A DNA stretch of 64,000 bases from Schmidtea nova (lineage: Eukaryota): positions 14,012,001-14,076,000 of the forward strand of contig CM097884.1 of assembly GCA_044892505.1 (NCBI GenBank), in the 5' to 3' direction. Positions 13,020 to 44,639 of the stretch are shown piece by piece. The translations under genes were made by a program, and so were the position numbers. Below the pieces are notes generated by a model, which was not told the origin of the DNA, made no database searches, and was given only the letters and a program-made list of their open reading frames with translations. Numbering within the stretch: the stretch's first letter is position 1; every line of letters starts with the position of its first letter.

Positions 13020-13056
13020 CTGATTGGTCAATGAACTGATCTGGTCAGTATAAATA
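13020..13056 (+). promoter_or_regulatory. LTR promoter: inverted CCAAT (CTGATTGGTCAAT) plus TATAAATA
   Basis: The same pair of motifs, in the same order, occurs in the divergent family-2 LTR (39310-39273, minus). Copy in the 3' LTR at 29768-29804. Confidence 0.65.
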
Positions 13057-14289
13057 CTGATCCAGATTCAGATATTTTTAATGTTTTTGTGATTGAAAAA
13101 TTTTTTCTTTGTATTGCTATATACAAACTTTGGAAACTAATAGGTATGAGTATTTTTGTTTTATTGAATTTATAAATTTTATGATTATCTGTCATTGACC
13201 ATTGTAGTTAATTATTAATAAAATATTTTATGATATATGATTTTTAAATTTTTGTCGAGTATAGAATTAAACCCAGCTTCTTCCACTGTGAAATCAGTGG
13301 AAGGAGATGACTATATTTATATATTATATATCTTTTATTAAGCTTCTTCCATCGTGTAATCGGTGGAAGGAGGTAACAGTATCAGTTTATACTAACAACT
13401 AACAAGTATATTTTTTAGAAGTAATTTTTGGGTCGAGCTTCTTCCACTGTGTAATCAGTGGAAGGAGGCGTATATATATTATCTATATACCGTATTTATA
13501 GTATAAAATTACGTATGATTTAAGGGGCTCCGTTCACCGTGCAATCGGGAACATGGAGGCATACTGTGCCGAGTAGAAACGACTGCTCCGTACAGTTAGG
13601 CCGTCCGACCGGTGTAAAGCGCCGTGACGAGGGTAGGAATGTTATTTTTGATTTCTAACCTTATTTTTCACTGGATAGTATAACCAGTTGAAGTTTTATT
13701 TTCTAACCGATTTAGTTTTTCATGAGTGTATAGTTAAATTGAGTTTTGATTTTAGTTGGATACAGATGTAACTGCGATTTGAGTAATCTGATTTTACCTT
13801 GAGATTCACAGAGTGTTAGCGTACATTTTTCGATGGTCACATCTGGGGTTTGTGGGCATAGAGCGGCAGATACACGGTTAAGAATCTGTACAAAATATAA
13901 TTTTAATAACAACATAAAAATCGATAATGCTAACAACGTAGTGATCTACTACGCAAGTAACATAGCAGCAATAGGCTATAGGTTCAAACATTCCACCTAA
14001 ATAATTAAACATAATTGCTTATCCTGAACCCTGTACATAGGGCAGTGGATCTTAGTTTATTTTAATAACTTTCTTATCCTGAATGCTGTATATAGCACAG
14101 GCGTAACTAAATAAAATGCATTATGAAATAAATGTATCTGATCGCTGTATATAGCGACAGTGTTGAAAGCGTAATAGGTACATCATTTTCTTTTCCTAAA
14201 TTAACAATTACCAATTGTCAAAAGTATGAGAATCGTTCGAATCAAGACTACTAATTTCATGTTAATAAACCAATTTCGAATTTTAGAAA

Positions 14290-14880
14290 ATGTCAGCCAA
14301 CACAGCAACTAACCAAGCCGAATTAGACAAAGCATGGAGAATAATCCGCAGCCTCGAAAAGGAAATGCTGCGAAAATCAGAGAAAATAAAAGAAGCCGAT
14401 GGAATAATTACCAACCTAAAGAAAAGCTGGTTCAGTCCAGAACAAATGAAAATGCAAATCACCAAAACTCAACGCTCACAGCGAGCTAACAGCGAACTGC
14501 AAATGGAATTGGACGCAACGAAGATGGAATTAAAGAAATGCCTAAAATCTGTAACGGCATCATATCTAACTCAAGAGCTCAGCCAGCTCATTCGACCAAT
14601 CACTTATCAGCATTGGGCTGACGAAAAGGCAGGATGCTCAAAAGGAACAAGCACAGAGGAACCATCTCAGGTTCAAGCAACGGCGGCCTCCATCACACCA
14701 AAGGACGTAATAATTCCAGAAGTCAAGAAGAAAAAGAAGAGTAAGATGGGCGCACGTCAGCGACGCTGGAAGAAACAAGTTCTTCAGCAATTGGCTCAAC
14801 AATCCAAAGAAATTCCAGAAATTGATTTGAACATGAATTTTGCAATATCAGATGAAGATATTACCAAATACTTTGAATAG
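14290..14880 (+). CDS. LTR-encoded 196-aa coiled-coil protein with basic K/R motif (ORF-B)
   Basis: Intact ORF with TTTTAG|AAAATG immediately upstream; homologous to 36976-37575 and 43738-44199. Confidence 0.8.
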   Translation: MSANTATNQAELDKAWRIIRSLEKEMLRKSEKIKEADGIITNLKKSWFSPEQMKMQITKTQRSQRANSELQMELDATKMELKKCLKSVTASYLTQELSQLIRPITYQHWADEKAGCSKGTSTEEPSQVQATAASITPKDVIIPEVKKKKKSKMGARQRRWKKQVLQQLAQQSKEIPEIDLNMNFAISDEDITKYFE

Positions 14881-15194
14881 GAATTTTGTGATTTGTAAAT
14901 TTTGCTTATTAAATAATTTTTGTTTTGTATTTATCTTATTGTAAAGTATATGAACTAAAGTATTTTATTAAAGGATTTTTAAATTAAATTAAATGTAGAT
15001 TATAAATAAAAGATTGACATAAAGTAATGAACAATAATAGCATTAAAGAAATAACATATCGTAAAAATATTATTTGTTGATATTGTAAAGAAGGGGGCTG
15101 AAAGAAAGTTGAAAGTGGAAATATATTGTAACGAAAGGGGGCGAAAAGAGATAATTGAAATGAAAGATAATGGATGCGGATAGATTAAAATTAA

Positions 15195-15390
15195 AGCGTA
15201 AGTCCTTCTATCGGCAGCGAGACGAACCCGTGAACATAAATGGGGAGTAGTTTTAGCAATAGAGCTCACCTGCCCATCATTGTTCAAACACCTTGCACAT
15301 TTCCAACTCGATTATTACAGGGAAATGATCGAGGGTGCTCGTGTGATATGTAAGCATTTTATGTGAGGTTTTGGATGGAGGAATCCCTAG
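15195..15390 (+). ncRNA. Conserved structured RNA element near the LTR 3' end (copy in 3' LTR at 31943-32138)
   Basis: Alignable to 36668-36858 (-) and 44396-44572 (+) with compensatory base-pair changes (see findings). Confidence 0.6.
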
Positions 15391-15458: not shown

Positions 15459-15476
15459 TGGGGGCTCAGCCGGGAA
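15459..15476 (+). promoter_or_regulatory. Primer binding site, tRNA-Pro type
   Basis: TGGGGGCTCAGCCGGGAA, close to the canonical tRNA-Pro PBS TGGGGGCTCGTCCGGGAT; located 9 nt after the LTR end. Confidence 0.8.
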
Positions 15477-15915: not shown

Positions 15916-16377
15916 ATGAACGACAAATTAAAAGAAATAGAAGAATTCTTAAACACTGAAAACAAAACATACGATGAACTATGCGAGAAAATAAGTCGAA
16001 TAAGAGAATCCGGATTCAAAGAACCCATGACACAAACCGAAGAGACAACAGAGCTGATAAAAATAATGGAAAGAGTTGACAAAATAGATATTACTACTAG
16101 ATATAAATGGTACCAAGCGAGATTGGAAAACGCTGAGTTAAATATAAAATGCAGACAGCTAGAGCAACAATTAACTTCAACATACAACAAGTGGACGATA
16201 CAAGGAACTGAGACAGCTAAGAAATTTAAACTATGTTACATATGTCGAGAAAGGGAGAATAAAATCATGTTTTTACCATGTGGACATTTTCGGTTTTGTG
16301 GAATCTGTGCAGCCAATTGCGACAAATGCCCGATGTGCAATCTCGAAATAGACGAAAGAATTATTGTGTATTTATAA
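15916..16377 (+). CDS. Coiled-coil + C-terminal IAP/MDM2-type C3HC4 RING protein (153 aa)
   Basis: CYICRERENKIMFLPCGHFRFCGICAANCDKCPMCNLEIDERIIVYL at the extreme C-terminus; TTTAG|CAATG upstream. Confidence 0.85.
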   Translation: MNDKLKEIEEFLNTENKTYDELCEKISRIRESGFKEPMTQTEETTELIKIMERVDKIDITTRYKWYQARLENAELNIKCRQLEQQLTSTYNKWTIQGTETAKKFKLCYICRERENKIMFLPCGHFRFCGICAANCDKCPMCNLEIDERIIVYL

Positions 16378-17725: not shown

Positions 17726-18584
17726 TAACTAAGCAGGTGATTATTCTCTAAGAAGGTATTTTCCCTAGAGAAGGGCCATGGAGTCAAGCGAATAAATTAA
17801 ATTAGGGCATAGAAGAGCCAAGTGAATAAGTGAATAAATTAGAGAAGAGCCAAGTGAATAAATTAAATTATGGCGTAGAGAGCCAAGGGAATAAATAAGC
17901 AACAGAGATGAAATAAAACCAAGTTGTAATCGTCGACGATGTTAAGAGTAATGAGCACTAGAAATTAAGTAATACGAGTAAAGATGATTAAGTAAACTAG
18001 AGATTCAGTATGCATACGAGTAGAAATAGGAATAAGAGAAATTAGAGTTGACCGGAAAAACCGGTAGAAATAGTGAGAATAATGAATAATGATGAGAAAT
18101 TAGAGATGACTGGAAAATTTGATAGGAATAGTGAGAATAGTGAGTAATGATGATATAATGAATAGTGATAAAATGATAATTGAGTCAGGAGAACTCAAGG
18201 GAATTAAAGCGTTTGAGCGACAAATTAAATTGGGAGACTGAGGGAAAAGTAACGAATTTATTTGATAACGATAGATAATTATTACGACCATATAGATAAT
18301 TGTTACCAGTGAATAGATAATTTAAATAGACTTAAATAAAGGGGAAACCGGGAATGGGGAAACAATGGAAACCCAATAATGAGGAATAAAAGCGCAACGA
18401 TAACAATGATGTATCGTTGAAGTGACTTTTTAATTTAGATATACGGAACAGAACAAGTCAAACAACCAGCCAATCAATCAGAATACGATAACAGAGAAAC
18501 AGAAAAATTGATAAATCAAAGAAAAGTAAACCGAGATCAAGAACAGTTAAAAATCAAGAAGTCAATAATTCACAAAGAAATAAA

Positions 18585-21500
18585 TTGAGATCAAGAGCAG
18601 TTAGTGCTACAATCGAAAAAGTTGATAATTCACAGAGAAATAAATCGAAACAAAGAGCAACCAGTGCTACAAAGAAAACAAATCCTAAAGGAAGTAAATC
18701 AAGAAGAGTAATAGTAGAAAAGTCAAAAGTCGAAAACAGTAAATTTGCTAAAACTAACGAAAGTGAAACAGAAGAAAGTTTAAGTGAAACCTACGATAAG
18801 TATAATAATACGGAAGCATCAGATAACGAGTCAATAAACACAGAAGAAGTAGAAGCAGAAATTGATAATAATTCAAACGAAACGAATAACGAGCATACTA
18901 GTGAAACAAGAGGAAACGAGAGTAAAACGACTCAAGACAGCGGAATTGAAATGAACGAGCATAAAGAAGAAATCAAAGATAAATTTACTGGAGAACCATT
19001 CAATGGAGATGCCAGCAAGTTAGAAACGTTCTTAAAAGAATTTGGTATATTTGTAGAAGTGTGTAAATGGAAACCAGAAACGATAAGAAGCAGAATTCAG
19101 TTATATTTAAAAGACAGTGCGTTAGACTTATATTTAGAAGCTAAAAATTCGGATGATCAACTCGATAGTTGGGAAAAGATAAAGAATTTTTTCCAGCAAA
19201 CGTTTGGAATAAATAAAGTATTAAATGAAGCGTTTACAGAATTTTCAATGAGGAAACAAAAAGTTAATGAATCAAATGCAGTATATGCAAGTGAATTAAA
19301 GAAATTGGCTAAATTGGCATTTAATCAAAATAGTCCAATGAGTCCAGAATTAATGGCAGCAATTTTTGTGGGGGGATTGAGAAGACCCGATATAAGAGCA
19401 CAAGTTGGATGCCAAGGTTGTAAAACAATAGATGAAGCGTTGGAAATCGCTAACAGATTTGAATTACATATGATCGGAAGTGAAGGAAGAATTTACCTAG
19501 CAATGGATACGACACAAAATGAACAAGCAATGAAGATAAACAATCATATTCCGAATTCACAACAATTAAACCGACCACCACCTCAAAGGAGAAATGAGGG
19601 AAACAAAGTACAAAATTTCGGAAACCAAAATAATTATAATACGCAAGGACAGACAAAGCAATGTCAAACCTGTGGAAAGTTAGGACATTGGCAACAAGAA
19701 TGTTTCGCGAATTTAAATTGTAAAAAGTGTGGAAGAAAAGGACATTCGGAAAGTAGATGTTACCTGAATTCATGTTATAACTGTGGACAACCAGGTCATA
19801 TGGCAAAGAATTGCCAACAACAAAACAACCAACAAAGGAATTGGTCGAACAACGGAAATCGACAAAGTTATGCGAATCAACAGAATAACGGAAACCGTCA
19901 GAATTATGAAAATCAACAGAGTAATTATAACCAGAACAAAAGTACCACCAAAGAGATACATTTATTACAAGAAGTTCAGAGATTGACAGAGTTAATAAAC
20001 AATACACCGAGAGGAAATCAACAAACGAATCAACAACAAATGAATATGATGAGAAAAGTAGAAAGTGAAAATGAACGACTAAACCGAGAAAGTCAAGCAC
20101 GACATGCTCAAGAATGGGCAAGAATACAAAGAGAAGACGAACAGAAACGACAAGAAAGAGAACGACAACCATTGAGAATTAATATGATGAGAGCAGCGAA
20201 TCAAACAAGAGATAACAAAGAAGATATTGAACCAGAAACAAACCAGATAAACCCAAATCCGGAAGATGAAGAAAACCAAAAAGAAAAAGTACAAGAAAAC
20301 GAAGAAGATATTGAACAAAAAAGGATGTTGGTAGTCATGCCAAACGATCATGTATTTCGATTTGAATATGATGAAAAAGAGGAAGTAGAAGTATTAATTA
20401 ATAAAGTAAACAAGACGATTCCGGGAACGACGAAACTACCCCGAGAAGCATTCTTACAGACAGAAGACGAAGCAGCAATAAAATTAAAACCAACTGACAT
20501 ATGGAAAGATTTAGGAGTACCAATGAATAAAATGAAAGTCACAGTTATCCAAGAAATAGAAGAAAATAACGATGAAGAGAAATCAAAACCAGTAACAAAA
20601 GTCAAAAGTAGAGCATTGAAGATATTTGAAGAGAAAATCAAACAGAGAAAAGCAATGGAGATAGAAAAACGAAGAGGCCAAATAGAAGAATCAGGAAACA
20701 ATGACAAAAAGGAAGAAATACCACCAAACAGTATACCAGAAAACTATGAACTTAGACGATGTAGAAGTATGGATCCGCAAGGAGATTCACTCACAATTGC
20801 AGTCATGTCATCAAATACAGGACCAGTATTAACTACAACCATAGAAATAAATGGAAAAGAAATAGAAGCGATGATAGATACAGGAGCAAACATTTCGGCG
20901 ATAGATGTTAAATGGATACCGCAAGAACAGAGACAAGAAATTGAAAGAACAAATGTTCATGTAATAGCATGTAGTAAAGAGATTGTTGAAGTTGCAGGAA
21001 GATGGTGGGTAAAAATACGACACCAAAATATAGAAATCGAAACGTATGTAGCAGTAATACCAGCTTTAAGCGTACCATGTATAATCGGAACAGATTTAAT
21101 GCCAACACTATTCAAAGAAATAATCATCGATCTTGGAACAATGAGATTAAAGGACAGAACAGGGAAAATATGTGCCATGAAAACAAAAGTAATAAACTCG
21201 AAACAAATAATGATACCGGAAGAGAGAATCATGACGAGATCACAAACCATCAGAATAAATATGCTCAGAGCGGAAGAAATTAACACAACTAGTCAAGTAG
21301 ACAGTGAGAAAATCGATGTTGACAAAGAAATCGTACGGAAAGCCAAAGAAATAAACGAAAGATGGGAAATCAGACAAGAAAAAGACGTATTATGGGATAT
21401 ACGACAAATAATTAGTGATTACGCACGAGGATGCCCAACCAAACCAATCATAATAGAATTATTAAAGAAAATACCAGAGATACTCGTATTACAAGATACA

Positions 21501-24500
21501 GGAGGTGCAACTGCACTGCACAATGCCATAAGTTGGGGTAAAACAGAAAAGGTAAAAGAATTCTTGAAAATAGCAAAAGAAACGAATCAAAATCTAGACA
21601 TTGTAAATCGAGAATTAGAAACGCCAATGATGACAGCAACACTAAGCTTAGCAGATAAAGAAATAGTAGATATGCTGATTAACGCAGAATTCAACTGGAC
21701 AGCTCGGGATAGAAGAGGAAACACAGTTTTAAATCATGCAATAATGAGTGAAAATCAAATGATACTAAAACATATAACAACCAACCTCACATGGGAAATC
21801 GATGAATTAATCAAAGGAGAAATTATGAAGGAAGCGATTCGGAAAGGAAACACTAAAACAATATGGAAACTAATACAATGGAAATGGCCGGATAATAAAA
21901 CATGGGTATTAGATATAAACAAAGAATTTAGCGAAGGACAGAATGCACTATTGAGATACTTATTAGAGTTTACGTGCGATCAGAGAACGATGTTAGCACT
22001 AATAAATAGAGGAAAAATAAATATTAGTAAAAACGAAGAGGAATATAAACTAGAAGTTGAAAAGAAAGCTTTATTCAGGAAAATTTGGGTATGGTGTCAA
22101 AAACAAATACGCAAAGACATAAGCTACAAAAATCTAAATGATTTCCAAGAAAAGTATAAGATAATAATAAAGGAATACAAGAAGCTAGTGGAGATATTAA
22201 ACGATCCAGAAAAATTTAATCAAGCAATAAATCAGAAAGAAGAAGAAAGTAAAAGGATACTCACACCATTGTTCAACGCGAAGATAGATTATCAAGAAAG
22301 ATTGGATGCAATACACAAAAAAGCAAAGGAACTATTACCAGAATTCAAAGATACTAAATACGCCTTGGAAATACTAGGCGCGATAGTAGAAAAAGTACAC
22401 GCGTACGCGAAAGGAATGTATAATGGAGATGATATAATAACTATAAAAAGAGAAATGCCAGTTGCGTTTTTATTAACAAAAGAAAGAATAATACCGATTC
22501 ATAGAGCATTGAGAGCAGGAAAAGACGGTAAAGTAATCGAAATCGCAAGATTAATGCATCAATGTGGATGTGATATGAATATGATAGATGAAAAAGGAGA
22601 CACCCTTATGGTATACGCAGCAAGAGCAAAAACAAAAATCAAAGTATTAGAAGAGTTATATAAAGCAGGCGCAGGATTAATCGGAAAAACTGTCAAAGAC
22701 AACTCAATATTAGACGTGACATTATTAGGTCCAAATTGGGAAATGTTGAATTTCATTAAAACGATAACAAACCAAGAAGAGATAGATTATTTAACAGAAA
22801 CCGTAAAAAGACCAAGTGTATTGACAATGATGCAAAACATCAAATTGACAGAAGAAGTATTAAACTGGAAAATACCAAATACAAATAAACCAGCATTTAA
22901 AGTTAACAAGTTTATGGAGAATAATCGAAATTGGTGTATCCAAAGCGCACTAATAACTTATATATGGCCTGAAATTGTAGAAATTTTCATGAGAAGAGAA
23001 GACCTGAGATTTACAAACAAGCCTAAAGAAACGGAAAAGGTAGTCAAATGGAAAGAACTGATGAGAACACACCTTCAAAGTTGGATAAAAGCCAAGAAAG
23101 AAATTATACAGTATCAGTTAGACAACAAAAAGATACCCGAAGATATAGAATTCCAAGAATTTGAAGCAAGTAACTTAACCTCATTATATTATGCAAAACT
23201 AATAGAAACAAGTAATGTCGAGGACGACATTTTTAACGAGCCAGGGAGAGATAATAATACTGACAAAGACGATGACGATGAAGAAAACAATGACGACGAG
23301 AGAAATAAAGACGATGATGATGAAAATAATCACGGAAACCCAGATAACCACGAGCAAACCAACAAAGAAGACGAGAATCAAGAGAGAAATACAAAGAACC
23401 AAGAATCCAAAGAACAAAGAGAAGACAACCCTAAAAACAATCATGAAAACAAAGGAACAAGTTACAGAAGGAATCCATTATTCAGACCAGAAGTATTAAT
23501 GTTCGCAATAATCATAACACTTATGGGACAATGTGAAGCAACGAAACAAGAGATATCAGTAGAAATGGGAGTACCAATACAAAAAGCATCAACACAGATA
23601 ATGAATTCAAAGGATATTGAACAAGTATGTTGGGTAAAAGAGAATGAAATTCTCGGAGATAACAACCTATTACGATGTATAATACCAAACCCCGAGCGAA
23701 AAACTATAATAATAGACGAAATGGACATGGAAACATGGTACAGAATATGTACAATCAGAAAACCTAAAGACGAAAAATCACACAAGACAGTTACATGCCA
23801 AGTATACAAGACACCCAAAGTTCGATACGAGTTCGCCAATGGAATAGACCTTCCAGGACCATTTTATTTTAAAATAACAAGAGAACCAGCATCAAGAAAA
23901 GTCTTACAACAACCAAGAACCAAGATAACAACACCAAGTATAAGGAATACAACGGATAAACCAGAAACAAACAGAAGAAATACAACGGATAAACCAGAAC
24001 CAAAAAGACGAACGAAACAAACCACAAGAGTAATCTATAATTCCAAGTTGTTATGTATAGCACTTATTATGACAATACTGAAGCGATTAGAAGAAGGAAT
24101 AGAAATGGATACGATGACACTAATAGACATGGAAGAGACACAAATAACAAATCAAAAATGTTGGTTTAGAAATGATGAAAAATTAGAATTAAAGGAATCA
24201 AGAGAAATTCGAAAATTAGAAGCGGGTAAAACGAACAAAGTAATCAAGATAATAAAGATAAAAACAGACAGAATTCATAAACTATGTTTATTGGAAAAAG
24301 AGAGAAACAAGAAAGGAATAACCAATTGTAAAACATTCCAAGCAGGGAAAATAATAACGTTCGCAAGAAAAATGGGGAAAAGAAACAAACAAAATTTCCA
24401 GAAATTAACCATAACGTTAGAAATAACGGGAATAGAACAAAACGTAAACGGAGTATGCTGGAGAAAATACGAGAAAGAAGCAAATAAACACAAATCATCA

Positions 24501-25463
24501 CAATGTCAAACAATCAGAGGAACAACTGCAGTACAAATAAAAAGCTTAGAAAGAAATCAAACGTATGAAATATGCCTAGTAAAAGAAAATGATCAAATAA
24601 CGAAAGAAGATTTAGAATGCAGAATATACAGAGCACCGAACAGAATAAAAACCATTAAAGCAATACGAAAGAATAAAAGACAACAAAAACCGAAGCATAC
24701 CACTACCGAAAGTCAAACAGAACCAGAGAGGAAAACCTCAGCAACACTTATACTTTGGAAACTAGATAACAAAACAGTAGAAATATGTTGGACAATGATC
24801 AAGAAATATGAAGAAAGACAACCACAACAATGCGAAAAGATGAACAAAGAAGAGGAGATCAGAATTCAGAACCTACAATTGGACAAACAATACGAAATAT
24901 GCGCAATAGAAAAGGCAGATAAATTTGGAAACCAGCAAGAAAAATGTGGAAACTACTATACACCGACAAATACAACGATCAAAGGAAGAATCAAGAAACT
25001 AACTTTCGGAGAATTGAATCAAACAACGAAACAAATGGAAAACGAGGAAACAATAATAGATTCTTATGCACAATGGAAACCAGAAAAAGTAATCCAGGAA
25101 GTCAAAAGGAAACAACAAGAACGACAACAATTGGAACTCAAATTGAAAGGACAATATGGACCAATGATCAATCAAAGCAAATTCACCCAAATCAATGTTA
25201 ACAAGCAAGGAAGAGAATTAATCGGAGTAGGAATACTGGCAGTATGCGTACCAGTAATAATAATACTATCAATAATATGGCTATGGGACATAATAAAAAA
25301 GAAACCAACCAGACAATGGCCAGATATAAAGATTATGAATTGTAAAATCAAGATACCAGAAGAAGTAAAGAAAGAATTCCAAAGAAGAACCAAAGGCAAA
25401 GAATTTTGGAAGCAGATCGAAGACGAGGAGCGACACGATGAAAAGGCAGTGATGATAGTATAG
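18585..25463 (+). CDS. Gag(3xCCHC)-Ubl-like-aspartic protease-ankyrin-FN3-like-TM polyprotein (start uncertain; first in-frame ATG at 18951)
   Basis: Capsid-like FNGDASKLETFLKEF; CCHC x3 (19662-19814); MIDTGA...IIGTD protease (~20822-21150); ankyrin-like repeats (~21490-21780 and ~22490-22765); signal-like segment (~23490-23540); Cys-containing FN3-like repeats; TM segment (~25218-25286). Confidence 0.88.
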   Translation: MRSRAVSATIEKVDNSQRNKSKQRATSATKKTNPKGSKSRRVIVEKSKVENSKFAKTNESETEESLSETYDKYNNTEASDNESINTEEVEAEIDNNSNETNNEHTSETRGNESKTTQDSGIEMNEHKEEIKDKFTGEPFNGDASKLETFLKEFGIFVEVCKWKPETIRSRIQLYLKDSALDLYLEAKNSDDQLDSWEKIKNFFQQTFGINKVLNEAFTEFSMRKQKVNESNAVYASELKKLAKLAFNQNSPMSPELMAAIFVGGLRRPDIRAQVGCQGCKTIDEALEIANRFELHMIGSEGRIYLAMDTTQNEQAMKINNHIPNSQQLNRPPPQRRNEGNKVQNFGNQNNYNTQGQTKQCQTCGKLGHWQQECFANLNCKKCGRKGHSESRCYLNSCYNCGQPGHMAKNCQQQNNQQRNWSNNGNRQSYANQQNNGNRQNYENQQSNYNQNKSTTKEIHLLQEVQRLTELINNTPRGNQQTNQQQMNMMRKVESENERLNRESQARHAQEWARIQREDEQKRQERERQPLRINMMRAANQTRDNKEDIEPETNQINPNPEDEENQKEKVQENEEDIEQKRMLVVMPNDHVFRFEYDEKEEVEVLINKVNKTIPGTTKLPREAFLQTEDEAAIKLKPTDIWKDLGVPMNKMKVTVIQEIEENNDEEKSKPVTKVKSRALKIFEEKIKQRKAMEIEKRRGQIEESGNNDKKEEIPPNSIPENYELRRCRSMDPQGDSLTIAVMSSNTGPVLTTTIEINGKEIEAMIDTGANISAIDVKWIPQEQRQEIERTNVHVIACSKEIVEVAGRWWVKIRHQNIEIETYVAVIPALSVPCIIGTDLMPTLFKEIIIDLGTMRLKDRTGKICAMKTKVINSKQIMIPEERIMTRSQTIRINMLRAEEINTTSQVDSEKIDVDKEIVRKAKEINERWEIRQEKDVLWDIRQIISDYARGCPTKPIIIELLKKIPEILVLQDTGGATALHNAISWGKTEKVKEFLKIAKETNQNLDIVNRELETPMMTATLSLADKEIVDMLINAEFNWTARDRRGNTVLNHAIMSENQMILKHITTNLTWEIDELIKGEIMKEAIRKGNTKTIWKLIQWKWPDNKTWVLDINKEFSEGQNALLRYLLEFTCDQRTMLALINRGKINISKNEEEYKLEVEKKALFRKIWVWCQKQIRKDISYKNLNDFQEKYKIIIKEYKKLVEILNDPEKFNQAINQKEEESKRILTPLFNAKIDYQERLDAIHKKAKELLPEFKDTKYALEILGAIVEKVHAYAKGMYNGDDIITIKREMPVAFLLTKERIIPIHRALRAGKDGKVIEIARLMHQCGCDMNMIDEKGDTLMVYAARAKTKIKVLEELYKAGAGLIGKTVKDNSILDVTLLGPNWEMLNFIKTITNQEEIDYLTETVKRPSVLTMMQNIKLTEEVLNWKIPNTNKPAFKVNKFMENNRNWCIQSALITYIWPEIVEIFMRREDLRFTNKPKETEKVVKWKELMRTHLQSWIKAKKEIIQYQLDNKKIPEDIEFQEFEASNLTSLYYAKLIETSNVEDDIFNEPGRDNNTDKDDDDEENNDDERNKDDDDENNHGNPDNHEQTNKEDENQERNTKNQESKEQREDNPKNNHENKGTSYRRNPLFRPEVLMFAIIITLMGQCEATKQEISVEMGVPIQKASTQIMNSKDIEQVCWVKENEILGDNNLLRCIIPNPERKTIIIDEMDMETWYRICTIRKPKDEKSHKTVTCQVYKTPKVRYEFANGIDLPGPFYFKITREPASRKVLQQPRTKITTPSIRNTTDKPETNRRNTTDKPEPKRRTKQTTRVIYNSKLLCIALIMTILKRLEEGIEMDTMTLIDMEETQITNQKCWFRNDEKLELKESREIRKLEAGKTNKVIKIIKIKTDRIHKLCLLEKERNKKGITNCKTFQAGKIITFARKMGKRNKQNFQKLTITLEITGIEQNVNGVCWRKYEKEANKHKSSQCQTIRGTTAVQIKSLERNQTYEICLVKENDQITKEDLECRIYRAPNRIKTIKAIRKNKRQQKPKHTTTESQTEPERKTSATLILWKLDNKTVEICWTMIKKYEERQPQQCEKMNKEEEIRIQNLQLDKQYEICAIEKADKFGNQQEKCGNYYTPTNTTIKGRIKKLTFGELNQTTKQMENEETIIDSYAQWKPEKVIQEVKRKQQERQQLELKLKGQYGPMINQSKFTQINVNKQGRELIGVGILAVCVPVIIILSIIWLWDIIKKKPTRQWPDIKIMNCKIKIPEEVKKEFQRRTKGKEFWKQIEDEERHDEKAVMIV

Positions 25464-25585: not shown

Positions 25586-25921
25586 ATGAATGTACAAGGA
25601 GAAACAACCGAAATGACTATGACTATGCGATGGAAAGCACAATGTGAAACGTTAGTTCGATCAATTAATGCACTACAGAATCAATTGGTAGAGAAGCAAA
25701 ATATATTAGCAGATTGTTACAACAATATCTTTGAGCAGTTACATAAAATAGAAGAGCAACAGAAAATAATAACAGAACTAACCAGAGAGAATCAAAGATT
25801 GAGACAAACGATGGAAATAAATCAACTAACAAGAAGAGATGAATCAGAAGGTCAATGGCTAGATTGGGTAATAAATGGATTAGAGAATGATATAGAACCA
25901 GATTCAACGAGCGAACCATAG
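25586..25921 (+). CDS. 111-aa coiled-coil protein of unknown function
   Basis: Intact ORF, heptad-like pattern, TTTTAG|AAAATG upstream. Confidence 0.6.
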   Translation: MNVQGETTEMTMTMRWKAQCETLVRSINALQNQLVEKQNILADCYNNIFEQLHKIEEQQKIITELTRENQRLRQTMEINQLTRRDESEGQWLDWVINGLENDIEPDSTSEP

Positions 25922-26018
25922 TCAAATTGTAGCGGAAAATTGTATATATGTAAAAATAACAACTCTAGAAAAATCAAAAACAAAGAACAAATCAATGTAT
26001 GTATATATTATTGTAGAA

Positions 26019-27374
26019 ATGGATAAAGAGGAACGAGCAGTCGAGATTTTGAGAGCAGCAAACAGAAATTGGAACAAGAGATTTGTATGTGGATATTGTA
26101 ATAATTTATTACGGAAACCAAAGCAAACCGCCTGTGGATGTAGATTATGCACTAGATGTGTACAAATGTTAGAGTTAAAAGGAATAACAGAATGTCCAGA
26201 ATGTAAAGAAGGACAAATAGTGTTAGACGAAACGAGACCAGATAGAGCAACTCAGAGAGAAATCATGAGCATATTAATTGAATGTATAAATCCACCATGC
26301 ATATGGCAAGGACAAATCAGTGAAATTGAAAATCATATAGAAAATTGTGAAGAAAAGAGAAGCGAATGTGAAAAGTGTAAAGAAACGATAATTTTAAAAG
26401 ACAAAGAGAAACACAGAGATGAATGCAAAGAGGAAGAAATCGCATGTGAATATTGCGAAATTCGAGAAACAAGGAGAAAAATTGAAGAGGAGCACATCAA
26501 TATAAAAGAAGAGAAAATATGTGAACAGTATGTAGGAGTGTGCCCAAACAAATGTGAAATTACCGAAGAAGTGAAATTACGAGAACATTGGGAAAAGTGT
26601 ACAGAAATACCAAGAGAATGTCCTTACAACAGATATGGATGCAAGGAAAAGAAGTCTCAACAAAATATGAAACAACATTTAGAAACAGAAGCAATCAATC
26701 ATATTGAAATGACAGACAGAACAATTCAGAAATTGGAAAAAGAAGTGGAATCTCATAAAATAATGATGAACCTATTATTAGAAACGAGAGAACAGTTTGA
26801 ATTAACCCGAGGAAGGATGGAAAAGAAAATAATAGCCATCAAGGAATTAGCAAAAGGAATGAAAGTGCAATATAACAAGTTAATACAAGAAATTGATGAG
26901 AAAAAAGATTTACCAATAGCACCTTATGTGTGGAAAATAACGGATTTCCGAAATAAATTGGAAGATGCACGAAGCTTCAAGAAAACTGCGGTAATAAGCC
27001 CACCATTTTACTTATGGAAAAACGGGGCTAAAGTGAGATTGAAAGTATATCCAAACGGAGATGGGACAAGTATGGGAAAACACCTATCAATATTTTTTGC
27101 GTTTTGCAAAGGAGAATATGACGATTTAATCGATTGGCCGATAGGAGTAGGAGTAATGATAAAAATCAGGGGTTTAAACGAAACCATAGAAAAGAGATTC
27201 ACGACAGACAAAGGAGCAGTTACGAGTAACAGACCAACAGAAGAATGTGGATTAGCAAGTGGAGAACCACACTTTGTATTACAAAGCAAGATATGGGGAT
27301 TATTGTATGAGGACACCTTATACATAGAAATGGAAAGGAACGAAAAGGCAGATAGAAAAGGATGGTTGGCGTAG
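26019..27374 (+). CDS. Intronless TRAF-family protein (RING, zinc fingers, coiled coil, MATH/TRAF-C)
   Basis: RING CGYC...CGCRLCTRC...CPEC; TRAF zinc finger PDRATQREIMSILIEC..PCIWQGQISEIENHIENC; TRAF-C YVWKITDF...SPPFY...VYPNGDG..GKHLSIFF...GEYDDLIDWP. Start placed at 26019 (TGTAG|AAATG) rather than the track's 25995. Confidence 0.92.
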   Translation: MDKEERAVEILRAANRNWNKRFVCGYCNNLLRKPKQTACGCRLCTRCVQMLELKGITECPECKEGQIVLDETRPDRATQREIMSILIECINPPCIWQGQISEIENHIENCEEKRSECEKCKETIILKDKEKHRDECKEEEIACEYCEIRETRRKIEEEHINIKEEKICEQYVGVCPNKCEITEEVKLREHWEKCTEIPRECPYNRYGCKEKKSQQNMKQHLETEAINHIEMTDRTIQKLEKEVESHKIMMNLLLETREQFELTRGRMEKKIIAIKELAKGMKVQYNKLIQEIDEKKDLPIAPYVWKITDFRNKLEDARSFKKTAVISPPFYLWKNGAKVRLKVYPNGDGTSMGKHLSIFFAFCKGEYDDLIDWPIGVGVMIKIRGLNETIEKRFTTDKGAVTSNRPTEECGLASGEPHFVLQSKIWGLLYEDTLYIEMERNEKADRKGWLA

Positions 27375-27478
27375 CAAGAGAAAATGATCGTGTAAATAAA
27401 CTGTACAAAACAATATAAAATGATAAATAAACAAAATAATAAAAGTAGCCTGATTGAAAATATTTGTAATTATAGAAA

Positions 27479-28582
27479 ATGGGAAACGTCGAAATCAGTT
27501 TACAAGCAGTAACCGCACATCAAGATGAAGTTATTTGTGAGCATTTAGAACAAATTGAAAGTTGGATCCACGCATATTACCACAAACAAAAAGAAGTAGA
27601 AAGACAAGCCGAACAAATAACAGAAGCCAAAAGATTAAAGCAATTAAGTCAAGATAAAATAGACGAATTATATGAATTATTGGAGAAACAAAAAGAATAT
27701 TATAAAAAGATGATGAAAGAACGACGAGAAGAAAGAGAGCGAGAACGAACAGAAATGGAACGAAAAATGTACTCGATTACCGAGCAAGCAAGATATTGGA
27801 AAAAAGAAGCGAAAGAATCTTATACGAAAGCAAGAGAAATAATCGAAAGAACGGCGTACAGCGATGATTGGAAGTTATTTGAAGAAATCGATAAATTAAA
27901 AGAGGAATTAGAACAGAAAACCTATCAGGAAATATCGAGCAAGAAATGGAATATAAAGAGACAACAATTCATCAGAGAGCAAGCAGGAAAAATTAAACAA
28001 CTTCTGCACCAGATTGAAAGATCGGAAAGAGAATTATATTTCAGTAAACAACAATCCGATGCAAACCTCAGAGCAGGGATGCAGAAAGAGGAAGATATGA
28101 AGCGCGATATTAATGGTTATCAAGGAGTAATCACTCAAAAGAAGATAGAGTTAAAGAAAACTAAAGAAAGATTAGAAGAAACAAAACAAAGCTATGAAGA
28201 AAATTTATTAAAATTAGAAGAAGCAAAACAAAGCTATGAGGAAAATTTATTAAATCTAACCAAAGAAAATGAAGAGTTGAAACAAAAACTGATACAAAAA
28301 TTAACACCACCAAAAGAGACAGATATCACCAAAGCAGTAATAAAAATGATGGAAGAGGAAGAGAAAAACAATAAAATAACAGAATTAGAAAAACGGATCG
28401 AAGCGTTAACAGAACAATCAAATTATTTAGAATATCTGTTAGACGAAGAAATCCAATTATCACACTTCTATCGAGATGAAGTAACAATGTGGAGAAACAC
28501 GATAGTATGGTTACCACCCCCTACAAACCAAGTGGAACCTCAAGATGAAGGTTTTCACGAACCCAATGAGTCGTTAGTATAA
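27479..28582 (+). CDS. 367-aa long coiled-coil protein
   Basis: Intact E/K-rich ORF with internal repeat KQSYEENLL x2; TTATAG|AAAATG upstream. Confidence 0.7.
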   Translation: MGNVEISLQAVTAHQDEVICEHLEQIESWIHAYYHKQKEVERQAEQITEAKRLKQLSQDKIDELYELLEKQKEYYKKMMKERREERERERTEMERKMYSITEQARYWKKEAKESYTKAREIIERTAYSDDWKLFEEIDKLKEELEQKTYQEISSKKWNIKRQQFIREQAGKIKQLLHQIERSERELYFSKQQSDANLRAGMQKEEDMKRDINGYQGVITQKKIELKKTKERLEETKQSYEENLLKLEEAKQSYEENLLNLTKENEELKQKLIQKLTPPKETDITKAVIKMMEEEEKNNKITELEKRIEALTEQSNYLEYLLDEEIQLSHFYRDEVTMWRNTIVWLPPPTNQVEPQDEGFHEPNESLV

Positions 28583-28657
28583 AAGAAGTGCGAAAATTAG
28601 TTGTAAATATCTGTAACATAACAATGTCAAACTGTATTGACAAATTTGTAAAGTGAA

Positions 28658-29221
28658 ATGAAGAAGCTCGCAATACTGATAATCCTAAACGTAATCGAGA
28701 TCACCCAACAAAGAGAAGACCGTCCGATATTAAAAGAAAACCTACAAGTCTTACCCGAAAAAATCTATAAAGAAATAGATAATCTATTAAAAGAAGCAAT
28801 CAAAGAAATATCTCAAATTCAATTGTCAACAGCACCTAACCCAGTATCAACGCAACAAACCCTGTGCAAAATCAATAACAAATTAGAGAAGATTCGAAAA
28901 ACCTTAAAAGAAAGTAAAGAAACTATAAAGAATTTACATCGAGCAGAAATTCAATACCAAGAGAGATGGATCGTTGCGATTATAATCGTATTAACAATTA
29001 GTACAACAACCTGCGCAATTACCATTCTCATCGCAGTATATAGAATAAAGATCCTAAAACAAAAACAATCGATCATCAATCAAACAACAGCATACGATGA
29101 CAATGCCCGAAGACAAATGAGAAATCAGTTCAACAGAATACGAACCCAATACGAGTTACCAGCAATTCCACAGAACCAGTCCAATCCAGTGCGAGTTATG
29201 AACTATTTGTATAAACAATAA
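28658..29221 (+). CDS. 187-aa predicted type-I membrane protein
   Basis: Signal-like MKKLAILIILNVIE, coiled coil, TM WIVAIIIVLTISTTTCAITILIAVY, then basic stop-transfer RIKILK. Confidence 0.7.
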   Translation: MKKLAILIILNVIEITQQREDRPILKENLQVLPEKIYKEIDNLLKEAIKEISQIQLSTAPNPVSTQQTLCKINNKLEKIRKTLKESKETIKNLHRAEIQYQERWIVAIIIVLTISTTTCAITILIAVYRIKILKQKQSIINQTTAYDDNARRQMRNQFNRIRTQYELPAIPQNQSNPVRVMNYLYKQ

Positions 29222-36510: not shown

Positions 36511-36667
36511 AGTTAATAATAATAATAATAATTATTATTATAAAAATAATAATAATAACTTTAAAAACATTCAAGGGTTTAAAATTTTTAAAACTATCTA
36601 AATATCATTCGAAAGGTATTTGAGTGCTGGGTTCATGGAGGGGTTAGATTAAAAATTCCACCAATGG

Positions 36668-36858
36668 CTAGGGATTCCCCATCCATGATCATGCATAAAT
36701 ATTACAAATTCTCACTCGAGCGCCCTTGATTATTTCCCTTGATAACCAAGTTGGTGATGCGCAAGGTGGTTAAACAATGATGGGCAGGTGAGCTCTATCG
36801 CTAGAACTACTCCCCATTTATGTTTACGGGTTCACGCTGCCGTAGAAGGACTTACGCT
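36668..36858 (-). ncRNA. Family-2 copy of the conserved LTR structured RNA
   Basis: Aligns with 15195-15390, with covarying stems. Confidence 0.6.
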
Positions 36859-36975
36859 ATTTACTTTATTATGTGAACATATGATTTAAATTTAATTACT
36901 ATTAATTACGTAACCGAAGAAAAATACCTAGAAGAACAAAAAAAACAACACAAAAATCTGATAATATTTAATGCT

Positions 36976-37575
36976 TTATTCGTTACAAAATTCTGCAAAG
37001 ATTCCCTCGGGAGGAAATATCTCCGTTAACCATTCTGCCTCAGACATCTCCGCCATATTCTCTACTTGCGCTTGTAACTGCTGGGAGAACAGTTTTCTTT
37101 GGCGTTGACGTTTGGAGCCAATTCGTTTTCTCTTTTTTATCTTTTCGACGGGAATCTGCATCAATGTAGGTTCTGTCGGACTTTGAGTAGGTGTTGCAAT
37201 TAGACCCTCGGTGTCGGTGCTGACCGAACAGGCCGTTTTTTGTTCTCCTACCCATTTCTGGTAGGTAATGGGTCGAATTTGTGACCGTAAGTCGGAATCG
37301 ATGAAGGAGGTCGTCACGGAATGGAGACATCGGCGCAATCCGATCTTTGTTGCTTCCCATTCCGTACGGCAGTCATCGGCGGTCTTCTGAGCCCTCTCCG
37401 TTCGACTCATCTGCTCTTTCATGCGAGCTGGGGCGAACCAACTGGTCCGTAAATACTGAATTTGAGCTTCTGTCTTAGCCCGTAGTGCCTTTTCTTGGGT
37501 TAATTCTTTCTCCAACGCCCGGCGCATTCTCCAGGCCTTGTCCAGTTCTCGCTGTTGGCTAGTTTCAGTCGTCAT
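36976..37575 (-). CDS. ORF-B homolog (199 aa) in the solo LTR
   Basis: ELDKAWR...WFAP..MK...ATK..L..CL.SVT...IRPITYQ.W...KKRKRIGSKRQRQRK; TTCTTCAG|TATG upstream. Confidence 0.8.
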   Translation of the reverse strand: MTTETSQQRELDKAWRMRRALEKELTQEKALRAKTEAQIQYLRTSWFAPARMKEQMSRTERAQKTADDCRTEWEATKIGLRRCLHSVTTSFIDSDLRSQIRPITYQKWVGEQKTACSVSTDTEGLIATPTQSPTEPTLMQIPVEKIKKRKRIGSKRQRQRKLFSQQLQAQVENMAEMSEAEWLTEIFPPEGIFAEFCNE

Positions 37576-37850
37576 ACTGAAGAATAAACAGGTTTTTATG
37601 AGGAGGAAATTACGTTAACTACGGTTAATACTGTTTAAGTCCATCAGGTGGAAAAATTGAATAAATAAGTAAATAATACATCAATAAATAGATAAGTAAA
37701 TAAGTCAACGAATAACGAATAAAATCAACACCATTTAATTTGTAAATCACATGTTATTCCATGGATGTGTTAATAACATTGTCAGCAGAAACACTTTGTC
37801 TTGATGCAATGTACGGGAAGAATGTGTAACCCGCGATTGATGGGAACTCG

Positions 37851-38270
37851 TCAAATGTGAGCCAGTGAGAAATTTAGTCTGGGACGTTCTTGGCCAGTTT
37901 TCGGTAAGCAGTTCGGAATTAAATCAAGTTGGAGTAGCCCGTGGGGCGAGATGTATCCCCAATGGATCACTGTCGCTGGATTACCGGCTGCGTCCATCAA
38001 AATTACGACGAATGGTGCCGTCGTTATGTGGTCTCCTCTGTCTGGAATTCCCCATCCAGGGCCTCCTCGATATACGATTCTGTCCGGACCATCTGCCCAA
38101 ATCGAAAATGGACATTTTCTGTTAAGCTCTCTTTTCCATTGATACATTAATGCATTTACGGTTCTGAGGAGTTCCGAAGGAAGAACTTTTAATTTCCGAA
38201 TCTGAGGGGTAGCGGCTAGGGTCTCCTGTCGCTGAGCCATTAGAAATTTCTCAACTGTCGTTTGTTCCAT
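37851..38270 (-). CDS. ORF-A (139 aa), second LTR-encoded protein, function unknown
   Basis: Intact ORF with CTCAG|ATG upstream; decayed homolog at 43026-43406. Confidence 0.65.
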   Translation of the reverse strand: MEQTTVEKFLMAQRQETLAATPQIRKLKVLPSELLRTVNALMYQWKRELNRKCPFSIWADGPDRIVYRGGPGWGIPDRGDHITTAPFVVILMDAAGNPATVIHWGYISPHGLLQLDLIPNCLPKTGQERPRLNFSLAHI

Positions 38271-39952
38271 CTGAGTTAATTCGAATTAATGTGATTTATG
38301 AAATATAGAGAGACCCGATGAGGTACATTCCCCTTGTTGCTCATGAGATTTATCTACGGATTCATTGGTCTTACCAGAGGTGAGAGTGAACATTTAAGAC
38401 CCAAAATGAAGAGGAGAAGAAGGAAAAAAAAATTATTAATAATTTTTCTTTAACACTGTCGCTATATACAGCGATCAGGATAAGTTAATGTTAAACAGGA
38501 ATTTTTACCTGCGCTATTTACAGAGATCAGTATAAAATCTAATCTTAGTAACACTGATTTCTAAGAAAATTTGCACACATCAGTCTAGTCGTTCGATCTA
38601 ATTCAACACAATCTCTCTTGTGTGTGTGCGGATGCCTAAGTCGGTGCTGATCGGCATCTGATGTACAGATCCGAATTTCAGTCAAGTGGAATTCATGCAT
38701 CAAAATAATATCGATTCTGTTGACTTAGTAAATCGTAACCTGATGCATAATTAAATTTAGACATTCAATATTTTCATCGATAACACCCTAACTTAACCGA
38801 TCATAATTGATTAACGTCCGATAGTGCAACCCGCACGCTCCTGCCCCATGCGCAATTCTACTTTACGATTAAATCTCTGATAAAACCCAACATAAAAAAA
38901 ATATTGATAGGAACTTCGCTCATCATCCTGTGGAACGGTAAAATCCTACACTACGGCTTACTCTCTCGCAGCGTGAGCTACTGAGGAAGTGTATTTATAA
39001 TAAAATATTGAAATAACGAAATAAACAAAATCACCAATAATAAACTATATTAAATAAAATTGTATCAAATGGAAATCATAGGAACAATAAATTAACATAT
39101 GAAAAATTTTAATAACAATCAAAAATATTTACTTCCAAGGATCCAAATAGATGCGATGAGTTTCAGTCAAAATTGTTTTTTAATACATAACGAAATTTAT
39201 GTTCGTGAAAATAATGCTGCTAGACAAAGTCTGTAGACAAAATTAGTGTTAACTTTGTGATTTTCGGATCGGTATTTATATTGATCCAGTTGGTCAGATT
39301 GACCAATCAGGATCAGGCCGTCCATCAAAGTAAGTCTGTTATTTTATTTTATTGTAAACCATATTTTATTTCCGGTTCAGGTTTCTCGCTGGGTGGTCCT
39401 GATTTTCGAAGTAATTAATCAATTAATTGTACTATTATTTTATTTTATTTCTAATTTTTCTGTTTCAGGCCCCCTTGCTGCTTGTTCCAGTGTCAATTTT
39501 GATTTTTCCTTTTGCTGGAAATTTATTTATTATTATTTATTATTTTATTCTGATTTTTAATTTAGGTTTTTCGATGTATTTTGTATTTATTATTTTAATT
39601 TTGTTTAAATTGTTATATTATTTTTGTCATTTTAGACCACTTGGCGGGCCCAACATGAGTATGGTAGTTATATCCTCAAACCTTCAAGATGTTAAAAAAC
39701 TTATTTATTAAAATACCTCAACGTAATATATATTTATTTCCCTACGCATTTTGACAATGCAATCCATGTGCAATATTTACAAAGACATTGCTATCTAGAT
39801 GCAAGTTAACAAAGACATTGCAATGCAGATGCAAGTAAAATTAACAAAGACATACATGCAAGTTAATAATGATTATAATAAAAATAATGATAGTGATAAT
39901 AATAATAAAAAAATAATAATAATAATATATAATAATAATAGTAATAATAATT

Positions 39953-41787: not shown

Positions 41788-43025
41788 TATCGGAAACTTG
41801 CAAAAGTCACCATAATCGATTTAAGTGTTTTCATTCATTGCTAAGTTTAGAAATTTATTAATTAAACCGAACGTAAATTCTAAAAGTAGAACAATATTCT
41901 GGATTATTTTATCGATGCATTAAATTCCCTAAACCTGCTGAAAAATTATCGTAATAATTTCCATCTGATAATTGCGCTCGTAGACAGTGAATGTAATCAT
42001 GGATAGTAGCATTTTTCGCTTCACTCGAGTACACTGTTATGACGTAATAGAATTCCACTCAATTTCCGACAGGGAGAGAGAGAACTCCGGAGCAACGTGT
42101 AGTATGATGGTAGGGATAGTAAACTTGATAATAGCCGAGAGCCTAAAAGGATAATAAACTTAATTAGTAAATACCACTGGGAGTTAAAGTAGCTAGGTAA
42201 GATTTCCACAAGCAGTGAATTTGTTCTTGTCGATTTATTCGGTCGCGTGCATTGAACAGGAGAGGAATGCGTTGCCGAATTTCGCTAATGAATTTTCCAT
42301 TAGGGATAATTACTCAGCAAACTCGAGAGTAACGCTAATTGTGGGGAAGTGAATCATGAAGAAGTGGTCGCTGGAAGCGTATTTGTTAATTGAATTACGG
42401 ATGATCAGGCATGAAAGTGTTACGATAAATTTCAACAAAATTAATTGAATTTTGCATCCCAGAAAAGTAAAATGAAATGGTCAAATCGTAAAGAGAGTTA
42501 AATTGGGAAACACATCCTAACTGAGCGAACACTGAGAATCAACAGAACTTAGGGTGAAATGATTACAGCGAAATTTCAGTAGACAAATTCATGATGCCTA
42601 AAATATCTCATAGAGTATAAATAAAAGGAGTATAGAGAGCGAAAAGCATGGGGATGGGGCCAATAACTAATATATAAACTTTAAACAAATATGAACCAAC
42701 GAGGGGAGACAAGAGTGAACAACTTATAAAACTTATGACTGACAGGATAGATGATAGAAAAGTGACAGAATGGTTATGAGATCTCCTATGGTCTATCTAA
42801 AGGATAAAACCTAAATATAAATTGGGATAATTCGTCATCCAAGAGTAAAGGAGTGCTAAAGAACGAGAGTGGCGAGGAAAAGTTGAATTAGTTCGGCGGA
42901 CAAATAATAAAGGTCCCTCTCGAACTTACATGTAAATGTTTCTATATATATGACTTCATCTACCTTAGATCTTACAATGAGCAGCGAGTGAGAGGAGAGC
43001 CAACCCAACCAATCCAACAGACTAC

Positions 43026-43406
43026 ATGCAAAACTTTTACGACAATCATCTGATAGTGGCCATGCCACTCAAGAACATTCCGACAGAATTAATCAGAGAT
43101 TTTCGACAAACACCATGAGGCATTCACCAATAGGGGGTCATCCCTTCGTTTTGCCTTTCTCGGGACAGCCCTGATAAAATAATTTGGCATGGGAGCTAAG
43201 AATGGCCCATTGATATCGACAGAGAATATCCAGCCGACCTACCGAAATACTTCGTAGAGGCGCCCACCGACGTACTCGGACGATTTAAAATACAATTTCG
43301 AGGCACAATTCCACAGGACGAACTCTGGAGTATGGGACGTTTTGTATTCAGCCCTGCTCCTTCTGCATCACCCACAGACTCTCCCTTCAGCCCCTTGGAA
43401 GCCTGA
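43026..43406 (+). pseudogene. Decayed ORF-A homolog (three in-frame stops)
   Basis: Manual translation KNIPTELIR...FCLSRDSPDKIIWHGS*EWPI versus KVLPSELLR...FSIWADGPDRIVYRGGPGWGI. Confidence 0.6.
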
Positions 43407-44199: not shown

Positions 44200-44395
44200 T
44201 TGTAATAAATGATTCAATTATATGTATTGCCAAAATATAACCGTTGTTTTGTTTTAGTGTTGAATTTTACATTTTGTTTGATCTAAAATAGTAATCGAAG
44301 GTATTTTACGATGAATAGATGAATAGGAATCGCGTAAGGGATTAAAAGATAACACCCTGAATTAGAGACTAGCGCAAGGGTGAGAGTGGGGAAAT

Positions 44396-44572: not shown

Positions 44573-44639
44573 ACAGAAAATACTGAGAGAAGGGATATGT
44601 ATTTGTGAGTTCTAACAACAACATGACCAACAATTGACT

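Follow-up and report, generated by a model that had tools for sequence, protein, structure and literature searches.

A conserved gene inside the LTRs of planarian Burro-type elements may encode a Rev-like RNA-binding regulator

Long terminal repeats (LTRs) are normally non-coding. HIV Nef and MMTV Sag are LTR-overlapping reading frames that are located within U3 and read from the 3' LTR, and HIV Tat combines a Cys-rich zinc-binding and core domain with a basic tract, with a hairpin located downstream of the promoter. Complex retroviruses export their unspliced RNA by way of a small, oligomeric, basic protein that is made from a spliced message (PMC5568270). As described in the same source, Rev-like proteins have in common an arginine-rich motif, helices for oligomerisation and an RNA target close to the LTR, and the export signal follows the basic tract in the known proteins, except in EIAV. 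A preliminary description of the locus studied here treated such regulators as a feature of vertebrate retroviruses, a framing that is too narrow, since CERV of the C. elegans element Cer1 is reported to be an invertebrate regulator of genomic RNA export that is made from a spliced mRNA of a Ty3/gypsy element and has no homologue outside its lineage (PMC10309623). The giant Ty3/gypsy elements of planarians are known as Burro/GYPSM1 (PMC6431247), and the text on them, as distinct from its figure, makes no mention of an LTR-internal gene. Also, no Burro LTR gene appeared in the titles and abstract openings retrieved for Burro, planarian LTR genes, LTR-encoded proteins and Rev-like proteins, and it should be noted that Grohme 2018 with its supplements, or Jurka 2007, may show these reading frames.

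We have analysed a stretch of 64,000 nucleotides, referred to below as the window, and describe a small gene, ORF-B, that lies at 14290-14880 on the + strand (196 aa), inside the 5' LTR of a Burro-type element. The element and the related LTRs of the window are made up as follows.

12664..~15452, + strand: 5' LTR of the Burro-type element (family 1), with TG...CA ends and the 4-bp target duplication ATAC
15459..15476, + strand: primer-binding-site-like sequence, presumably tRNA-Pro-like, next after the 5' LTR in families 1, 2 and 4
15916..16377, + strand: RING-finger accessory ORF (PF13920, E 1e-11)
18492..25463, + strand: polyprotein frame of 2,323 codons with CCHC knuckles, protease and ankyrin repeats
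25586..29221, + strand: four 3' accessory ORFs, one TRAF/MATH-like, three of them preceded by an acceptor-like YAG
29412..~32198, + strand: 3' LTR (family 1), identical to the 5' LTR, holding a second ORF-B at 31038-31628
36625..39655, - strand: family 2 solo LTR with the target duplication CTCA, holding ORF-A (38270-37851) and ORF-B (37575-36976)
~42220..44632, + strand: family 3 LTR remnant, with a broken ORF-A (about 42996-43394) and an open ORF-B (43738-44199)

Comparison of the window with itself detected the two family 1 LTRs as a direct repeat of 2,787 bp, 100% identical, at 12664-15450 and 29412-32198. We assigned the element to the Burro type because the domain architecture of its relatives matches the description of Burro/GYPSM1 (PMC6431247), and on the same ground the host is probably a planarian. 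Common to both are a polyprotein of about 5,100 aa, a CCHC Gag, a fusion protein between Gag and protease, the domain order PR-RT-RH-IN, a MATH/TRAF ORF and ankyrin repeats. In relatives from LTR families 1, 2 and 4, a mononegavirus-like fusion domain (PF24664) is situated between Gag and protease, in the same frame. Matches to RT, RNase H and integrase were obtained in 2 of the 4 relatives examined (L169, with PR-RT-RH-IN plus ankyrin, and L164, with RT-RH-IN plus ankyrin); the other 2, L162 and L167, have protease and ankyrin with no RT-RH-IN match, and TRAF/MATH cargo is found in L167 and in the window element. The window copy departs from the Burro/GYPSM1 layout in that a Pfam domain search gave no match to Env, RT, RNase H or integrase. 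For the pairs examined, the LTRs measure 2.8-3.6 kb, carry 4-bp duplications and are spaced 17-26 kb from each other. The young copies at L161-L162, at L166-L167 and in the window have near-identical LTRs and no RT, RNase H or integrase match, some of them keeping Env and protease, and this suggests that they were moved by mobilisation in trans. Two further observations concern the interior of the window element: its leader carries tandem repeat arrays of 25-nt and 45-nt units (16386-17756), and the spacers of 75-120 nt between its 3' accessory ORFs (25463-28658) have TGTA-rich words in common and sometimes AATAAA, in an operon-like layout.

The 3' LTR copy of ORF-B is identical to that of the 5' LTR. 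The family 2 protein (199 aa), which is encoded within a solo LTR of 3,031 bp, is 38% identical to the family 1 protein by pairwise BLASTP (E 4e-37), and the 153-aa protein of the family 3 remnant is 27% identical to it (E 4e-11). Coordinates and alignments thus confirm the preliminary description in placing ORF-B in both family 1 LTRs and in families 2 and 3, and the shared motifs and basic tracts that it had listed are present in all three window families. Its statement that the flanking LTR DNA is mostly unalignable has to be qualified, in that families 1 and 2 do align with each other at the promoter, at a hairpin block and over a block of 200 nt close to the 3' end. Similarly, the placement of ORF-B downstream of a conserved CCAAT/TATA pair holds for family 1 but not for the family 3 copy of the window, around which no such pair was detected in 40001-44000; that copy also lacks an acceptor-like site at 30 nt or less from its ATG.

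With any of the three window proteins as query, the genome gave at least 150 scored matches. Of the best 150 for family 1, 146 were without a stop, and an exact pattern taken at the start of ORF-B occurred at 178 places, that is, in at least 178 family 1 copies. A recognisable, intact ORF-B was recovered from 89 of 130 loci, with 70 of the 89 being distinct, and the proteins range from 144 to 199 aa. In ten further candidate LTR pairs, ORF-B lay within the repeat every time; seven of these pairs align from the TG start (one of the seven to the end of the compared stretch), for one the alignment was partial, and another proved to be a plain duplication. Families 2, 3 and 4 have a second LTR gene, ORF-A (139-167 aa), upstream of ORF-B (as in the two window loci listed above and at L103:2055-2555); it is absent from the family 1 LTR. 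ORF-A is preceded by an acceptor-like site of its own and gave a dN/dS of 0.17 in family 4; it had no Pfam match above cut-off, and its structure model (pLDDT 37) was too poor for use. One or two genes have been kept in the LTR by families that have no more than 22-40% identity between their proteins.

Our observations on selection establish that ORF-B is a genuine protein gene of Burro-type elements, under purifying selection. By the Nei-Gojobori method, dN/dS was 0.146 for 35 family 1 copies (bootstrap 0.10-0.20), 0.113 for 22 family 2 copies (bootstrap 0.08-0.15), 0.20 for 7 family 4 copies and 0.13 for 5 old and saturated family 3 copies; codon models gave 0.11, 0.18, 0.20 and 0.22. Since the copies for the main test had been ranked by their likeness to the ORF-B protein, the test was repeated on 25 loci picked by ORF-A, of which 24 had an ORF-B, intact in 22, and dN/dS for this set was 0.20 (0.14-0.29). 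The effect is specific to the frame: 4 of 5 alternative frames in families 1 and 2 gave values of 1.45-2.6, while the antisense frame that shares third positions gave 0.18-0.28, as expected, and third positions differed more often than first and second positions by fourfold in families 1 and 2 and by 2.4-fold in family 4. The values of 0.11-0.20 in four groups are thus not near 1, the outcome that the preliminary description had named as telling against a functional protein.

Constraint is distributed unevenly along the protein. In three families, regional dN/dS was 0.08, 0.07 and 0.07 for the N-terminal helices, 0.01, 0.05 and 0.04 for a basic 17-residue segment, and 0.33, 0.32 and 0.64 for the linker, whose length differs by about 19 residues between families; the C-terminal tail gave 0.23 in family 1, 0.09 in family 2 and 0.90 in family 4. 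The basic tract, to which attention had been drawn because of its composition, is accordingly the most constrained part of ORF-B. We also examined 29 older family 2 copies, including broken ones, and found that the changes shared between copies had a dN/dS of about 0.12, whereas private changes gave about 0.74 and included 13 stops. Private changes that are close to neutral, together with the stops, indicate that selection acts during replication of the element and that inserted copies decay. These 29 copies gave no sign that the host maintains ORF-B in solo LTRs, and a host-level role for solo LTRs is not supported.

A model of the family 1 protein was obtained with AlphaFold2 from an alignment of 21 sequences, and is summarized here by residue.

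residues 3-47, 50-100, 106-113, 153-174 and 188-195: predicted helices
residues 115-149: disordered

The layout is therefore one of two long helices, a capped short helix, a linker of variable length, a basic helix (153-174) and an acidic tail. Mean pLDDT was 71.5 and pTM 0.28, so that the helices are credible and their packing is not. The two shared motifs, (W/Y)F(S/A)PxxMK and I(R/K)P(I/M)TxxxW, sit at predicted helix junctions, where the most conserved residues of ORF-B are found, and they may be helix caps, which they resemble. Helix 2 has a heptad bias, with 47-71% hydrophobic residues at a/d positions as compared with 20-33% elsewhere. The sequence of the basic tract differs between families; the 17-residue segment holds 5-8 Arg in families 2-5, and 3-4 Arg with 7-8 Lys in family 1. 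An acidic-aromatic C-terminal tail is present in families 1 and 2, and family 4 has no acidic tail. Judged by the spacing and pattern rules that serve as the standard for leucine-rich nuclear export signals, the sequence L-x3-I-x-P-(I/L/M/V)-x-(L/Y), which occurs in 67 of 70 copies, is the one conserved stretch with export-signal-like spacing, and it has an internal proline; it lies upstream of the basic tract and ends in Tyr in families 1 and 2, and the plain export-signal pattern matches this site only in families 3-5.

The profile search for homologues that had been proposed came back empty in Pfam, the PDB and 1.84 billion proteins. Nothing exceeded the Pfam cut-off; among near-length proteins, none of 200 candidates from a single query or 3,269 from an alignment query reached E 0.01; the best PDB sequence match had an E of only 0.16; Foldseek with the ORF-B model gave 0 matches in the PDB and none at E 0.001 or below in BFVD; and all ESM Atlas matches were below 0.9. 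The representative set of 1.84 billion proteins did return 2 matches, which we rejected as homologues because both are multi-stretch repeats and were taken for coiled-coil noise. Within the elements themselves, ten internal stretches from four relatives were searched with an ORF-B profile, and no second homologue turned up.

The family 1 LTR contains, in addition to ORF-B, candidate signals for expression and several structured RNA segments.

13023..13056, + strand: CCAAT (as ATTGG) and TATA box, in 39/39 family 1 elements, with the same layout in families 2 and 4
13144..13151, + strand: predicted 5' splice donor at the end of a short non-coding first exon, GTATG in 39/39 elements
13277..13607, + strand: hairpin array A, consisting of a branched hairpin plus three hairpins of 12 bp, in the predicted intron (folding z to -5.3, low diversity)
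14024..14162, + strand: hairpin array B, three short repeats, in the predicted intron (folding z only about -1)
14281..14286, + strand: predicted 3' splice acceptor, separated by 3 nt from the ATG of ORF-B, in 39/39 family 1 elements
15005..15010, + strand: candidate poly(A) signal after ORF-B, AATAAA in 29/39 and ATTAAA in 8/39 family 1 elements
15195..15390, + strand: structured RNA core towards the 3' end of the LTR, made up of two hairpins, the asymmetric loop of one being invariant

Donor-like sites occur at similar places in families 2 and 4, and an acceptor-like site precedes ORF-B in 35/35 family 1 copies, 21/22 of family 2, 7/7 of family 4 and 4/6 of families 3/5. As regards the poly(A) signal, 4 of 6 young family 2 copies have no AATAAA within 260 nt. 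The acceptor-ATG layout of ORF-B is shared by the other accessory genes: in the window element, YAG stands 1-3 nt before the ATG in 5 of 6 accessory ORFs, as compared with 48 of 436 ATGs overall (binomial P 9e-5). By sequence, the arrangement would fit one leader exon that is spliced onto many acceptors, and spliced-leader trans-splicing at the same acceptors would fit too. Spliced-leader trans-splicing has been described in planarians and, in parasitic flatworms, is reported often to share acceptors with cis-splicing (PMC12582326, PMC4558846). Five pattern searches for spliced forms present as genomic copies gave 0 matches, the unspliced control pattern giving 178. Because promoter, donor, acceptor and AATAAA/ATTAAA are all located within one family 1 LTR, a solo LTR appears to have the parts of a transcription unit, in agreement with what the preliminary description had suggested. 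A separate observation is that an inverted repeat flanks the TATA box (13036-13072 in the window, and the L091 and L103 promoters), with one sequence in families 1/2 and another in family 4.

Arrays A and B lie between the donor and the acceptor and would thus exist only in unspliced RNA. The sequence of array A is family-specific, its location being 200-550 nt after the TATA box, and the family 2 LTR has two related copies of array B. At the 3' core, 15 of 27 predicted pairs were changed on both sides among 10 sequences, a count that is favoured by our having derived the structure from the same related sequences; none of 500 shuffles reached 15 pairs, and slid controls gave 5 or fewer. G-U pairs in the core point to the sense strand. 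Rfam gave a single weak match (E 0.44) for the window stretch, and no match for three further LTR loci or for the 3' core. This core, of about 200 nt, is common to all LTR families and is the most conserved part of the LTR. It adjoins the primer-binding site and may equally serve reverse transcription or packaging.

We also used linkage among family 1 elements (38 of 40 that were fetched plus the window copy, 2 being dropped for missing internal sequence). Linkage in the LTRs of the 39 elements drops within about 150 bp, indicating heavy recombination among family 1 copies. No clear break was seen at the presumed start site, so that U3/R/U5 border models cannot be separated by this method. ORF-B appeared to be co-inherited with the promoter (r 0.74) and with array A (r 0.67), but within the main subfamily of 28 the values were 0.23 and 0.26 and were not significant; long-range linkage of ORF-B with these parts was therefore rejected as being explained by subfamily structure.

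The reading we prefer, with a probability of roughly 0.38, is that ORF-B may be an oligomeric, Rev/Rex-like RNA-binding regulator that is made from a spliced message. The claim is limited to ORF-B perhaps working like Rev; membership of the Rev or Tat families by homology is excluded. By this reading, transcripts from the CCAAT/TATA promoter would have their short first exon spliced onto the acceptor before ORF-B or, alternatively, a host spliced leader would be trans-spliced at that acceptor. The long helices of the protein are predicted to self-associate, and would thereby hold several basic helices on flexible linkers; these could bind LTR hairpins, either those of the 3' core or those of arrays A and B, the arrays being a mark that only unspliced RNA would bear. 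ORF-B would then allow element RNA that is unspliced or partly spliced to build up and be exported from the nucleus, in the way that Rev, Rex and CERV do. A need for such a regulator would follow from the genomic RNA having to keep the whole LTR unspliced, with a leader that seems to be designed for splicing.

Points in favor of a Rev-like role are the dN/dS values, the constrained basic helix, the AlphaFold2 helices, the heptad bias, the YAG enrichment, the covarying stems and a predicted layout like that of Rev-like proteins, and CERV is a precedent for the function in an invertebrate Ty3/gypsy element. With Rev, Rex, Rem and Rec, ORF-B appears to share small size, oligomerisation-type helices, a basic motif, a predicted spliced message and structured RNA in the LTR, but its gene lies wholly inside the LTR, its export-signal-like spacing is imperfect and precedes the basic tract, and its family 1 tract is lysine-rich. 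Protein, PDB and fold searches found no sequence or fold homology of ORF-B to Rev, Rex, Rem or Rec. Like CERV, ORF-B belongs to an invertebrate Ty3/gypsy element, with a spliced message that in its case is predicted; it differs from CERV in being a helical protein of 144-199 aa encoded inside the LTR. Several observations weigh against a Rev-like role. The lysine-rich family 1 tract would fit a nuclear or nucleolar localisation signal equally well, and the candidate export signal, with its proline and terminal Tyr, is placed before the basic tract. There is no likeness to any Rev-like protein in sequence or fold, and none of the five pattern searches recovered a genomic copy of the spliced form. 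Basic tracts vary between families while the loop of the 3' core is invariant, and the apparent co-inheritance of ORF-B with promoter and hairpins was lost once the main subfamily was considered by itself. The broader proposal, in which each Burro LTR would be a self-contained cassette that combines a promoter with a gene, spliced or trans-spliced, for a Rev-like protein of independent origin and with the RNA target of that protein, strikes us as doubtful.

With Nef and Sag, ORF-B has in common that its coding sequence is inside the LTR; unlike them, it is located 1.2 kb downstream of the one conserved CCAAT/TATA detected in the LTR and has its own predicted acceptor, and there is no sequence likeness. 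The comparison with HIV Tat, which had also been raised, is favored by the basic tract and by hairpins downstream of the promoter, yet ORF-B is largely helical and lacks a core domain, and with only 1-4 cysteines per protein in 70 copies (one Cys being nearly invariant) it has no Tat-like Cys-rich domain. These features bear on a different possibility, which we regard as unlikely, that ORF-B is a transcriptional activator of the LTR, acting either as a dimer on the TATA-flanking inverted repeat, for which foamy-virus Tas, an activator that acts on DNA, is the model, or through nascent RNA hairpins in the manner of Tat. The presence of an inverted repeat of different sequence around the TATA box in families 1/2 and 4, the constrained acidic-aromatic tail of families 1 and 2 (dN/dS 0.23 and 0.09) and the position of array A after the TATA box are consistent with an activator. 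However, family 4 has no acidic tail and its tail is unconstrained (0.90), the basic helix comes after the long helices and a linker of variable length, which is not the geometry of bZIP proteins, a Cys-rich Tat domain is lacking, and the linkage to the promoter is accounted for by subfamily structure.

A host-interfering or structural accessory protein, in which the basic tract would be a nuclear/nucleolar address or a non-specific nucleic-acid tail, seems to us similarly improbable. The other accessory genes of the element (RING, TRAF and ankyrin) point to host signalling and ubiquitin pathways, and ORF-B has the same acceptor-ATG layout as they do; also, the family 1 tract is lysine-rich, and the most conserved residues are those at helix junctions. 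Host-like neighboring cargo, which is described for these elements elsewhere as well (PMC6431247), is in keeping with such a role. On the other hand, a dN/dS of 0.01-0.05 over 17 residues is probably tighter than a simple localisation signal should need, and a host-directed role leaves unexplained why ORF-B has stayed in the LTR of all examined families, including family 1, which is without ORF-A.

One known design among viral silencing suppressors is the small, basic, helical dimer. ORF-B, which would fit that design, could be an anti-silencing protein of this kind, expressed from its many LTR copies, that would bind small or double-stranded RNA and weaken piRNA/RNAi control. Residence in the LTR raises gene dose, with at least 178 family 1 copies, and BURRO1 is reported to be silenced by SMEDWI-2 in planarians (PMC8532177). 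We consider this quite unlikely nevertheless, as Foldseek searches of the PDB and BFVD gave no fold match to a suppressor, and the strong constraint is accompanied by no sign of rapid change in the conserved parts. Finally, the proposal that the open frame is a by-product of DNA/RNA constraint or of the young age of copies, with no protein of importance, gains something from the ranking of the main copies by protein likeness but is largely refuted by the third-position excess, by the high dN/dS of most other frames and by the low value that persists in the set picked by ORF-A.

ORF-B is thus a concrete candidate for a factor in export of the unspliced genome of a planarian element of 25-30 kb that has many predicted splice sites. 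If a Rev-like role is correct, ORF-B would be, after CERV, another example among invertebrates of the strategy used by complex retroviruses, and an invertebrate retroelement would have converged on the early/late switch of complex retroviruses wholly inside its LTR; also, the hundreds of LTR copies could supply the regulator in trans to elements that have no RT or Env. If it is false, ORF-B nevertheless stands as an orphan gene family that selection maintains in a known type of element.

Several other features were observed in the window. An inverted pair of RT + GIY-YIG (Penelope-like) copies at 2817-7728 is 98% identical over 1.9 kb. A host gene with an Adaptin_N domain, likely coatomer beta, occupies 46908-57021 on the + strand and has at least 3 exons, and a fragment at 41350-41820 on the - strand has matches to TPR and to glycosyl transferase family 41. 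Directly after the family 3 LTR remnant, at 44612-45700 on the + strand, a decayed integrase-like sequence was recognized by eye.
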